Shown one piece after another: positions 29,823 through 30,877 of a stretch of DNA of 64,000 nt; position 1 is the stretch's first letter, and every line of letters begins with the position of its first letter. The stretch is from assembly GCA_018303545.1 (NCBI GenBank), contig JAGVXY010000010.1, positions 1,643 through 65,642 on the forward strand, given 5' to 3'. Under the pieces are notes generated by a model. The model saw only the letters and a program-made list of their open reading frames with translations, did no database searches and was not told the DNA's origin. The translations under genes and the position numbers were made by a program. This stretch comes from Candidatus Woesearchaeota archaeon. GTDB taxonomy: Archaea > Nanobdellota > Nanobdellia > SCGC-AAA011-G17 > JAGVXY01.

Positions 29823-30359
29823 TTATTTTATCAATCTCTTTTCTTCAAAATCTTTGTGGGCTTGTGAAGCCTTTGGTCCATTGCTACCCTGATATTTTCC
29901 TTCGTATAATTTAATCTTTCCTTTGGTAACCCAAAAAGAAACTTGTCCGATTTTCATCCCAGGATATATCTTAATGGGCAGAGTAGCATATAATTGAAAA
30001 GTTATATTGCCTATTGAACCGATATCTATAAGATCTGCAGTTACATGAACAAACAAACCCAATCGAGCAATGCTTGATTTAGCATGAATGATGGGTACAA
30101 ATTTTTTACTCCCCACATCCTCCAGGCTATGACCAAGAATAAAGTCTCCTTGTCTCAACAATAATCCATTTTTTGGAATTTTTTTAATTTTATATTTGTT
30201 TTCTCTTGCAGGATCTAAAACTTTTTCAGTATACACAAGATAGTCATCTCCTAATCTTAAATCACAAGAATTTGTTGTAATCATTTTTTCATCAAAAGGA
30301 GAGATTATAATATTCTTCTTTTTTACCTGTTTTTTTATTTCTTCACCAGTTAATATCAT
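29823..30359 (-). CDS. dCTP deaminase/dUTPase-family paralog 2 with catalytic Glu replaced by Gln
   Basis: MILTGEEI...DLRLG, AKSSIARLGLFVHVTA, IDIGSIGNITFQLYA versus E. coli Dcd IDPGWSGCIVLEFYN, and PGMKIGQVSF. Confidence 0.7.
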   Translation of the reverse strand: MILTGEEIKKQVKKKNIIISPFDEKMITTNSCDLRLGDDYLVYTEKVLDPARENKYKIKKIPKNGLLLRQGDFILGHSLEDVGSKKFVPIIHAKSSIARLGLFVHVTADLIDIGSIGNITFQLYATLPIKIYPGMKIGQVSFWVTKGKIKLYEGKYQGSNGPKASQAHKDFEEKRLIK

Positions 30360-30877
30360 TTTGCCTTCCTCAATTTAGATAATTTAGGATTATTATATTT
30401 ACTATAACCTTTATCATAAGGACTCAAACGACCTCTATTATCCCAAAACGAAATCTGCCCAATAATCATGTTCGGATAAATCTTAAGTTGTTTGGCTGAA
30501 ACAAGTTCAAGTGTCCAACGATGGCAAGAACCTGTATGTCCTAAATTTGCTGAAACTTGTAAAAATAATCCCAAACGCCCAAGGGAACTTTTACCAATGA
30601 GGGACATAGCATATTTTTTACTTCCTAGAATCTCATATGTTCCTGCAAGATATGTCCTGCCCGGTTTTAGAATATAACCAGTCTCTGGTATTTTAATCCT
30701 CTTGGCGTTTTTTGTATTACCTTTAATCTTAAATAAAATCAATTCATCACCCAAACGATAATCATAACTATTAGGGTTAATTTGTTCTAAATTAAAAGGC
30801 CCTATCACTATGTTCCCTCTTTTTACTTCATTTGTAATCTTACTTCCTGTAAGTATCATTTTAAAATAATTCGACAT
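30356..30877 (-). CDS. dcd: dCTP deaminase/dUTPase-family paralog 1 (catalytic Glu present)
   Basis: MILTGSKI, SYDYRLG, GKSSLGRLGLFL, GHTGSCHRWTLEL and IGQISF motifs. 4-bp overlap with paralog 2. Confidence 0.75.
   Translation of the reverse strand: MSNYFKMILTGSKITNEVKRGNIVIGPFNLEQINPNSYDYRLGDELILFKIKGNTKNAKRIKIPETGYILKPGRTYLAGTYEILGSKKYAMSLIGKSSLGRLGLFLQVSANLGHTGSCHRWTLELVSAKQLKIYPNMIIGQISFWDNRGRLSPYDKGYSKYNNPKLSKLRKAK

Follow-up and report, generated by a model that had tools for sequence, protein, structure and literature searches.

The window examined here is a stretch of 64,000 nucleotides from a Candidatus Woesearchaeota archaeon (assembly GCA_018303545.1, contig JAGVXY010000010.1), and it carries on its minus strand two adjoining genes of the dCTP deaminase (Dcd) family which, judged together with their relatives in other genomes, appear to divide the catalytic residues of one enzyme between two chains. 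The first gene, paralog 1 or the E subunit (30356..30877, minus strand), encodes 173 amino acids with a Dcd fold, and the second, paralog 2 or the Q subunit (29823..30359, minus strand), encodes 178 amino acids with a Dcd/dUTPase fold. An earlier account of the locus, made from the sequence alone and called here the sequence-only reading, had described two such genes overlapping by 4 bp, and this is what we find: both are minus-strand open reading frames (ORFs), both match the Pfam family PF22769 (DCD), at E = 1.7e-29 for paralog 1 and E = 5.3e-37 for paralog 2, and they share the four nucleotides ATGA at 30356-30359, with AGGAAGG upstream of the start of paralog 2.

Public records label both proteins ‘dCTP deaminase’ or ‘deoxycytidine deaminase’. 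Against the family model TIGR02274 paralog 2 scores 118.7 bits, above the trusted cutoff of 92.8, and paralog 1 scores 72 bits, below it. The true start of paralog 1 is probably Met7, since MILTG is the start in 99% of its family and the ATG of Met7, at 30859, lies one base after the stop codon of the upstream gene. AlphaFold2 modelled paralog 1 from an alignment of 30 sequences with a mean predicted local distance difference test (pLDDT) score of 77.8, and a fold search gave as its nearest solved structures the bifunctional dCTP deaminase-dUTPases (DCD-DUTs) of B. halodurans, M. tuberculosis and M. jannaschii, with template modelling (TM) scores of about 0.73-0.78. The locus is not an assembly artefact, since it was assembled independently, with identical gene order, on 12 metagenome contigs.

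Catalytic residues of the E and Q families

The homologs of paralog 1 (the E family) and of paralog 2 (the Q family) were compared column by column, in the numbering of E. coli Dcd. In phmmer searches against the PDB, the segment GNITFQL of paralog 2 aligns with GHITLEL from M. tuberculosis Dcd:Dut, and HRWTLEL of paralog 1 aligns with GKITLEI of the M. jannaschii enzyme, and in a MAFFT alignment Gln122 of paralog 2 falls on the catalytic Glu138 of E. coli Dcd. The sequence-only reading had set ITFQLYA of paralog 2 against IVLEFYN of E. coli Dcd and had concluded that Gln replaces Glu at the catalytic position; that alignment is correct, and paralog 2 has neither Glu nor Asp near the position of Gln122. 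The glutamine occupies this column in 120 of the 120 closest homologs of paralog 2 and, being invariant, does not reflect decay, so that what had been taken for a single substitution in one gene in fact defines a widespread family. Nor is paralog 2 a pseudogene, since it is full length, scores above the TIGR02274 cutoff, carries the family’s invariant Gln, is conserved beyond its partner and belongs to a locus that has been assembled independently several times. The glutamine is also not a mark of Dcd-like dUTPases, as the Dcd-like protein of SIRV2 that is annotated as dut keeps the Glu, and paralog 2 reaches 16.3 bits against a cutoff of 130 with NF002598, the model for archaeal/viral Dcd-like dUTPases.

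Both families keep motif II throughout, Ser111 and Arg115 being present at 100% as Ser95 and Arg99 in Q, where the motif reads K94-S95-S96...R99, and as Ser97 and Arg101 in E. At the other columns compared they differ. The counterpart of His121 is His105 in Q (100%) and Gln107 in E (99%); that of the motif-III Asp128 is Asp112 in Q (100%) and His114 in E (99%); that of Gly133 is Gly117 in Q (100%) and His119 in E (100%); Ile135 is replaced by variable residues in Q and by Trp121 in E (100%); and Glu138 is Gln122 in Q (100%) and Glu124 in E (100%). The C-terminal lid is conserved in Q (LY.GKYQGS.GP..S) and degenerate in E. Taken as a set, Asp112, His105, Ser95, Arg99 and the entire triphosphate lid are kept in Q at 97-100%. 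On this comparison the two paralogs carry reciprocal changes, E having lost the motif-III Asp and Q the deaminase Glu. Neither chain has both residues, paralog 1 combining His114 with Glu124 and paralog 2 combining Asp112 with Gln122, and both are present only when the pair is taken together.

The sequence-only reading was right that paralog 1 keeps its catalytic glutamate, but paralog 1 is not an ordinary Dcd either, given a His for the motif-III Asp, a Gln for His121, a new His and Trp and a degenerate lid. Its suggestion that paralog 2 may be non-deaminating agrees with the residues, as a protein with Gln at this position is very unlikely to be a deaminase. As for the phosphate chemistry, an exchange of the motif-III Asp for Asn abolishes dUTPase activity and leaves binding unaffected (PMC5519681; PMC4827122). 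In an ungapped comparison E. coli Dut has Ser at the position equivalent to Glu138, and dUTP hydrolysis is therefore independent of the Glu. Three positions past the motif-III Asp both families have Ser (94-95%; Ser115 in Q, Ser117 in E), and the same comparison finds an aromatic residue there elsewhere, namely Tyr93 in E. coli Dut, Trp131 in E. coli Dcd and Phe in the M. tuberculosis Dcd:Dut. This aromatic presumably lies against the deoxyribose in dUTPases, and its loss suggests a different sugar specificity.

Pairing, fused relatives and ancestry

Relatives of paralog 2 were sought in a scan of one genome per species and were found in 343 of 185,579 species, from which 80 loci were fetched for the counts of pairing and of neighbours. 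The pair occurs in organisms as far apart as DPANN archaea and Streptomyces, and is common among reduced genomes (DPANN, Patescibacteria). Its best matches are in metagenome-assembled genomes of Nanoarchaeota/Woesearchaeota, and the 120 closest homologs of paralog 2, at 60-82% identity, belong to Woesearchaeota/Nanobdellota, Patescibacteria, Pseudomonas, Bradyrhizobium and Cardinium, among others. An E-family gene adjoins the Q gene in about 77 of the 80 loci, and contig edges account for two of the three exceptions. The usual layout is E and then Q with a 4-bp overlap; in Enterobacterales and Pseudomonas Q comes before E. E and Q are 41% identical and nearer to each other than either is to canonical Dcd, and they vary together, pairwise identities among E proteins correlating with those among the Q proteins of the same genomes at r = 0.84, against a maximum of 0.18 over 500 label permutations. 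Mean identity is 57.5% for Q and 54.5% for E, and in 75% of pairs the value for Q exceeds that for E.

When 1.84 billion cluster representatives were searched exhaustively, single chains with two or three Dcd domains came to light (P0242, P0246, P0321 and P0302), in which motifs II and III lie in different domains; the genomic context of these fused proteins comes from short contigs alone. Domain 1 of P0242 and P0246 retains motif III (GFGDNGF.GTWTLEI) and has lost motif II, domain 3 retains motif II (GRSS.GR) and has lost motif III, and domain 2 is without both. In P0321, domain 3 carries the E-family signature LGHTGVRHRWTLEI (LGHTG..H.WTLE) without motif II, which is supplied by domain 1. 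Since the active sites of the Dcd/dUTPase fold sit at subunit clefts (PMC4827122), such chains probably behave as covalent pseudo-heterotrimers with one composite site. As far as their motifs indicate, they show that a motif III of the E type can pair with the motif II of another Dcd module, and their complementary losses support a mixed ring for E and Q. The sequence-only reading had raised the idea that the two paralogs may form a hetero-oligomer, and this putative assembly now has strong comparative support from the adjacency of the genes, their shared overlap, the correlated identities and the fused proteins.

A second lineage (locus L174, 593-3594) has an E-type gene (LGHSG....PWTLE) followed, after a 4-bp overlap, by a Q-type domain (GQWTLQLY) which is fused to PPDK_N and phosphoenolpyruvate-utilizer dikinase domains, and several representatives of this fusion are 810-840 amino acids long. 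The domains of the 150 nearest representatives include about 96 with the canonical Ser-Arg-Asp-aromatic-Glu set and 26 with Gln at the Glu position.

As to where the pair came from, IMG/VR holds an abundant clade of single-copy viral Dcd proteins which score about equally against E and Q. All 80 of the 80 IMG/VR loci kept are single-copy relatives, at 37-45% identity, and their motif, KSSLGRLGLFVH.TAGFGD.GF.GHWTLEL, retains every canonical catalytic residue, including the Asp, the aromatic and the Glu; in the 48 loci where it is readable there is Glu in 48 and Gln in none. In a neighbour-joining bootstrap 98% of replicates separate the clade of E, Q and viral proteins from E. coli, M. tuberculosis and SIRV2, and E is monophyletic in 100%. 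The viral clade is a candidate for the ancestral state, and the pattern of residues agrees with a history in which a complete single-gene enzyme was duplicated and its copies then underwent reciprocal loss, the branching order having only moderate support. We rejected an origin of the pair in phages, or in a module for DNA hypermodification, because GenBank phages gave no match above 34% identity and the viral relatives, at 37-45%, are all single-copy and, where the motif can be read, have Glu, not Gln.

The operon and related gene clusters

The pair closes a tight seven-gene operon on the minus strand, which runs from 36687 to 29823. Directly upstream of it is a class I S-adenosylmethionine (SAM)-dependent enzyme of the MccD/AgnB1 family (30861..31682, minus), which is also the commonest neighbour of the pair in other genomes and which matches MccD (PDB 5fcd) at E = 8e-25 over residues 4-259, its full length, and AgnB1 of the agrocin 84 plasmid at 26% identity (E = 3e-27), again over the full length. 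Next comes an S66 serine peptidase of the MccF type (31657..32763, minus), which matches the MccF-like protein of B. anthracis (5f9m) at E = 3e-91 and E. coli MccF at E = 6e-25, and is 27% identical to AgnC5. The gene after that encodes a B12-binding radical SAM enzyme by its Pfam matches (32816..34396, minus); its best NCBIfam model is the PhpK P-methyltransferase subfamily, well below cutoff (141.7 bits against 600), and it matches no recurrent neighbour cluster in the other loci, being peculiar to the window’s version of the operon. Similarity to a PhpK-like P-methyltransferase is a notable feature in an operon that probably handles phosphate or phosphoramidate.

Family matches identify the following gene as a type III pyridoxal phosphate (PLP)-dependent decarboxylase with the Orn/DAP/Arg decarboxylase fold (34397..35620, minus). 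A tblastn search with it against plasmids returned only generic type III PLP enzymes, and by analogy it could be the counterpart of the N-terminal decarboxylase of MccE. The operon begins with a 350-amino acid paralog of the class II aminoacyl-tRNA synthetase (aaRS) core, truncated and ProRS-like (35635..36687, minus), which matches ProRS structures in the PDB at E = 2e-10 and the NCBIfam model NF006625 at 73.9 bits against a cutoff of 558. It is not an AlaRS-like or LysRS-like protein or a homolog of AgnC1, as it matched neither AgnC1 nor the hidden Markov models of the neighbour clusters, and in other loci its position is taken by AlaRS-like or LysRS-like paralogs. Each of the seven operon genes has an assignment other than MccA or MccB, and among the recurrent annotated neighbours in the 80 loci there is no ThiF-like cluster, although short peptide genes were not searched for. 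Having MccD-, MccF- and aaRS-like genes, the operon does not bear out the placing of the pair in housekeeping deoxynucleoside triphosphate metabolism.

The G+C content is 0.30-0.31 in the 30-36 kb bins, which hold most of the operon and extend just beyond it, against 0.33-0.35 in the flanks. About 1 kb past the end of the operon, at 28744-28846, lies a 103-nt match to a tRNA model (45.9 bits) that ARAGORN did not call and that is probably an intron-containing archaeal tRNA; the drop in G+C content with a tRNA nearby may mark an acquired island. Between this tRNA and the pair are two small minus-strand ORFs of 111 and 94 amino acids (28851-29186 and 29235-29519), which have no Pfam match, are kept in three of the three independent assemblies inspected and might be a toxin-antitoxin-like pair. 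On the other side, at 36968-37669 on the plus strand and divergent from the operon, is a free-standing editing protein of the AlaX type (C-terminal part of tRNA-synt_2c with tRNA_SAD).

Neighbours within 8 kb of the pair were clustered for the 80 loci. An MccD-like enzyme is present in 46, a methyltransferase of any cluster in 60, a class II aaRS-like gene (AlaRS-core-like, LysRS-like or monomeric PheRS-like) in 58, an S66 peptidase in 34, a PLP decarboxylase in 23 and an ATP-grasp ligase in 16; the MccD-like, S66 and aaRS-like genes occur together in 28, and 9 loci have no recurrent neighbour. In Enterobacterales and Pseudomonas the pair is accompanied by a methyltransferase, an AlaRS-like gene, a metallophosphatase, two ATP-grasp genes and a major facilitator superfamily transporter, with an integrase adjoining. 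In actinomycetes the order is methyltransferase, kinase-cytidine deaminase fusion, a gene resembling aminoglycoside phosphotransferases, E, Q, an unknown gene and NUDIX. In Cardinium, Rickettsiales and Bdellovibrionales the pair stands alone among transposases or housekeeping genes.

Some loci have features of their own. On a plasmid of Streptomyces sp. NBC_00239 the pair sits inside a large cluster, at about 6.8-20.5 kb, with an Erm-like rRNA methyltransferase, a TauD dioxygenase, a PIG-L deacetylase, WbqC, two glycosyltransferases, an aaRS-related protein, an HIT protein, two radical SAM enzymes and an LD-carboxypeptidase, and the whole looks like a more elaborate nucleoside-antibiotic cluster. 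Full-length aaRS genes (monomeric PheRS-like, class I LysRS, LeuRS) lie beside the clusters in at least eight loci of Patescibacteria and alphaproteobacteria, and could be resistant copies of a target, by analogy with AgnB2 for agrocin 84, or simply housekeeping neighbours. In seven actinomycete loci the fusion that precedes the pair joins a P-loop kinase-like domain to a zinc cytidine deaminase, with NUDIX after the pair; its architecture recalls that of the anti-phage dCTP deaminases, and PADLOC gave no match to it. An anti-phage defence system was rejected in general, PADLOC finding none for the paralogs or the recurrent neighbours and returning only weak matches to generic methyltransferase, radical SAM and HamB helicase models.

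Proposed function and comparison with known systems

We propose, with a probability of about 0.45, that E and Q together form a heteromeric, split enzyme resembling a deaminase/diphosphatase, which provides the pyrimidine nucleotide of an aminoacyl-nucleotide product. That the two proteins act together in these clusters is considerably more secure. In our hypothesis a single-gene Dcd with the Glu, the motif-III Asp and the aromatic was duplicated, and each copy lost one of the two catalytic residues, so that E and Q would now be subunits of one heteromer with active sites between neighbouring subunits. E, which keeps the Ser/Arg/Glu set of a deaminase but carries His where an Asp would activate the nucleophile on the alpha-phosphate, would provide a site that deaminates a cytidine-type nucleoside triphosphate. 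Q, with Gln for Glu and with the motif-III Asp and the triphosphate-binding lid retained, would provide a site in which the uridine-type product is bound and its alpha-beta bond cleaved, or the triphosphate dealt with in some other way. What leaves the enzyme would be a pyrimidine nucleoside monophosphate scaffold, and the true substrate may be a ribonucleotide or a sugar-modified nucleotide, because Ser replaces the aromatic in both subunits.

The pair would then be the nucleotide-supplying core of a pathway resembling the biosynthesis of microcin C and agrocin 84. In microcin C synthesis the phosphate of the phosphoramidate receives a 3-amino-3-carboxypropyl group that MccD takes from SAM, the PLP decarboxylase MccE1 finishes the aminopropyl group and MccF is an immunity carboxypeptidase, and for agrocin 84 the class II aaRS-core paralog AgnA is the proposed maker of the phosphorus-nitrogen (P-N) bond (PMC8323819). 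By analogy, the MccD-like enzyme would alkylate the phosphate, the PLP enzyme would decarboxylate the group transferred, the truncated aaRS paralog would add an amino acid and the MccF-like peptidase would shield the producer.

Several observations weigh against this proposal. Subfunctionalisation alone explains neither the invariant His119 and Trp121 of E nor its degenerate triphosphate lid, and the AlphaFold2 monomer of paralog 1 is of low confidence exactly at the active-site loop, residues 98-111. The bootstrap groups E with Q in only 73% of replicates and recovers Q as monophyletic in only 41%. The actinomycete gene set is a different one, with its kinase-cytidine deaminase fusion and NUDIX, and the pair can evidently work outside such clusters, since 9 of the 80 loci have no recurrent neighbour (Cardinium, Rickettsiales). 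The analogy to microcin C is also partial, since no gene of the MccB or MccA type is among the operon assignments.

Of the alternatives, the one that survives best, although we think it unlikely, is that Q is a catalytically dead partner of the ‘prozyme’ type, which binds nucleotide and activates or allosterically regulates the deaminase site of E and carries out no phosphate chemistry itself. The replaced catalytic Glu of Q and the obligate pairing would both be expected of such a partner, regulation by dTTP, which binds at the trimer's active sites, is found in Dcd-family enzymes (PMC4827122), and the motif II of Q could merely complete a composite site of E, as in the fused proteins. However, the residues and lid of Q are kept at 97-100% and Q is more conserved than E, a constraint beyond what a scaffold needs, and the fusion of Q-type domains to a dikinase module suggests that they handle substrate.

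It is rather less probable that the pair is a housekeeping route to dUMP for thymidylate, in effect a DCD-DUT made of two genes, with neighbours that are unrelated to it. Such a role would suit the lone pairs among housekeeping genes in Cardinium, Rickettsiales and Bdellovibrionales, the frequency of the pair in reduced genomes and the DCD-DUTs as nearest structures. Yet the distribution over species is patchy (343 of 185,579), and the pair is present in Pseudomonas, Serratia and Streptomyces, which should carry canonical dcd and dut. It is found beside an integrase or transposases and also on plasmids, and its 54-83% identity across domains points to horizontal transfer. The aromatic that stacks on deoxyribose is lost, and coupling to the MccD-like gene is tight in the 46 loci that have it.

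We regard as improbable a further reading, in which the pair is a phosphoramidate synthase: ammonia released by E, or another nitrogen nucleophile, would attack an alpha-phosphate held by Q, and the aaRS paralog would acylate the resulting nucleoside 5'-phosphoramidate. The pair does accompany enzymes of N-acyl phosphoramidates (MccD, MccF) and aaRS-core paralogs like AgnA, there is no MccB-type enzyme among the operon assignments to make the P-N bond, a deaminase-type subunit is strictly coupled to one of the type that attacks an alpha-phosphate, and the Asp-to-His change of E sits at the position that activates the nucleophile. Against this, the reading is speculative throughout, the Dcd/dUTPase fold is not known to support chemistry of this kind, and there are stand-alone pairs without an acylating partner. 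A broader version, the most novel of the readings, seems to us a long shot as well: E and Q would be a new kind of enzyme on the dUTPase fold that does more than make (d)UMP and joins nitrogen, or another group that is not water, to the alpha-phosphate of a pyrimidine nucleotide, perhaps with ammonia from its own deaminase-type site, and so supplies the phosphoramidate core of a large and unexplored family of aminoacyl-nucleotide antibiotics from bacteria and DPANN archaea. Equally doubtful is a self-protection or pool-sanitising enzyme that destroys a toxic pyrimidine triphosphate analogue arising from the cluster product, lone copies being orphan resistance genes, for although sanitising of nucleotide pools is a function of the dUTPase superfamily (PMC5519681), the same clusters contain immunity-type genes (MccF-like, HIT, extra aaRS) and stand-alone pairs exist as do stand-alone MccF homologs (PMC8323819), the pair is the most constant part of variable clusters and is translationally coupled to the MccD-like gene, as is typical of core biosynthesis, and the toxic compounds known from this class of antibiotics derive from monophosphates rather than triphosphates (PMC8323819).

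We infer that E and Q are a heteromeric member of the Dcd/dUTPase superfamily in which the catalytic residues are partitioned, and that they mark an uncharacterised family of gene clusters; because both genes are annotated with the names of single deaminases, a distinct, putative two-subunit enzyme has been hidden. Full-text searches of the literature outside subscription-only papers found nothing on the E and Q families or on a hetero-oligomeric Dcd, and no link of Dcd-like genes to clusters with MccD-like or aaRS-like genes. If the proposal is right, no natural hetero-oligomeric enzyme of the dCTP deaminase/dUTPase superfamily has, to our knowledge, been reported before this pair, and a heteromer with split catalytic residues would be a clean example of how duplicated genes undergo reciprocal loss. 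The pair is also a precise genomic marker of uncharacterised clusters in about 340 species, with culturable carriers in Pseudomonas, Serratia, Erwinia, Photorhabdus, Burkholderia, Rhizobium and Streptomyces. These clusters are candidates for new nucleotide antibiotics, because they have parts in common with the pathways to microcin C and agrocin 84, which yield inhibitors of aminoacyl-tRNA synthetases, and the presence of the pair in genome-reduced DPANN archaea and Patescibacteria suggests that symbionts make, or defend against, such compounds.

Among known systems, the bifunctional DCD-DUTs have the same fold, give the best sequence and structure matches and have the motif II Ser and Arg found in both paralogs. 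They are, however, homo-oligomers with Glu and Asp in each chain, whereas the E/Q pair splits the two, lacks the deoxyribose aromatic in both chains, has the extra invariant His and Trp in E and is encoded in a biosynthetic-type operon. E. coli Dcd (EC 3.5.4.13) is similar at the level of PF22769 and TIGR02274, but paralog 2 is without its Glu138, and paralog 1, which falls below the TIGR02274 cutoff, is without its Asp128 and His121. The two-domain DCD proteins (PF06559, A. tumefaciens 2r9q) and the multi-domain fusions resemble the pair in having several non-identical Dcd modules per assembly. Unlike the two separate, translationally coupled genes of the window, they are single polypeptides, and they are distant (PF06559 at E of about 1e-3).

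The likeness to microcin C lies in a full-length MccD homolog and a strong MccF-type homolog in the window, and, by analogy of role alone, in the type III PLP decarboxylase that could stand for MccE1. It differs in that a truncated aaRS paralog and the Dcd pair are found in the window operon instead of any gene assigned as MccA or MccB, and in its archaeal host. The agrocin 84 plasmid pAgK84 is without Dcd-like genes in its agn cluster and its nucleotide is an adenine 3'-deoxy analogue; the window’s ProRS-like protein has no BLASTP similarity to AgnC1, and the pentanamide, glucofuranosyl tailoring or other agn-specific genes are not in the window operon. Nevertheless, four families are common to the two, represented in agrocin 84 by AgnB1 (MccD family), AgnC5 (S66), AgnA (class II aaRS core) and AgnC7 (radical SAM), and just as agn includes an extra aaRS, a resistant LeuRS, as immunity, so related E/Q loci have an extra aaRS nearby.

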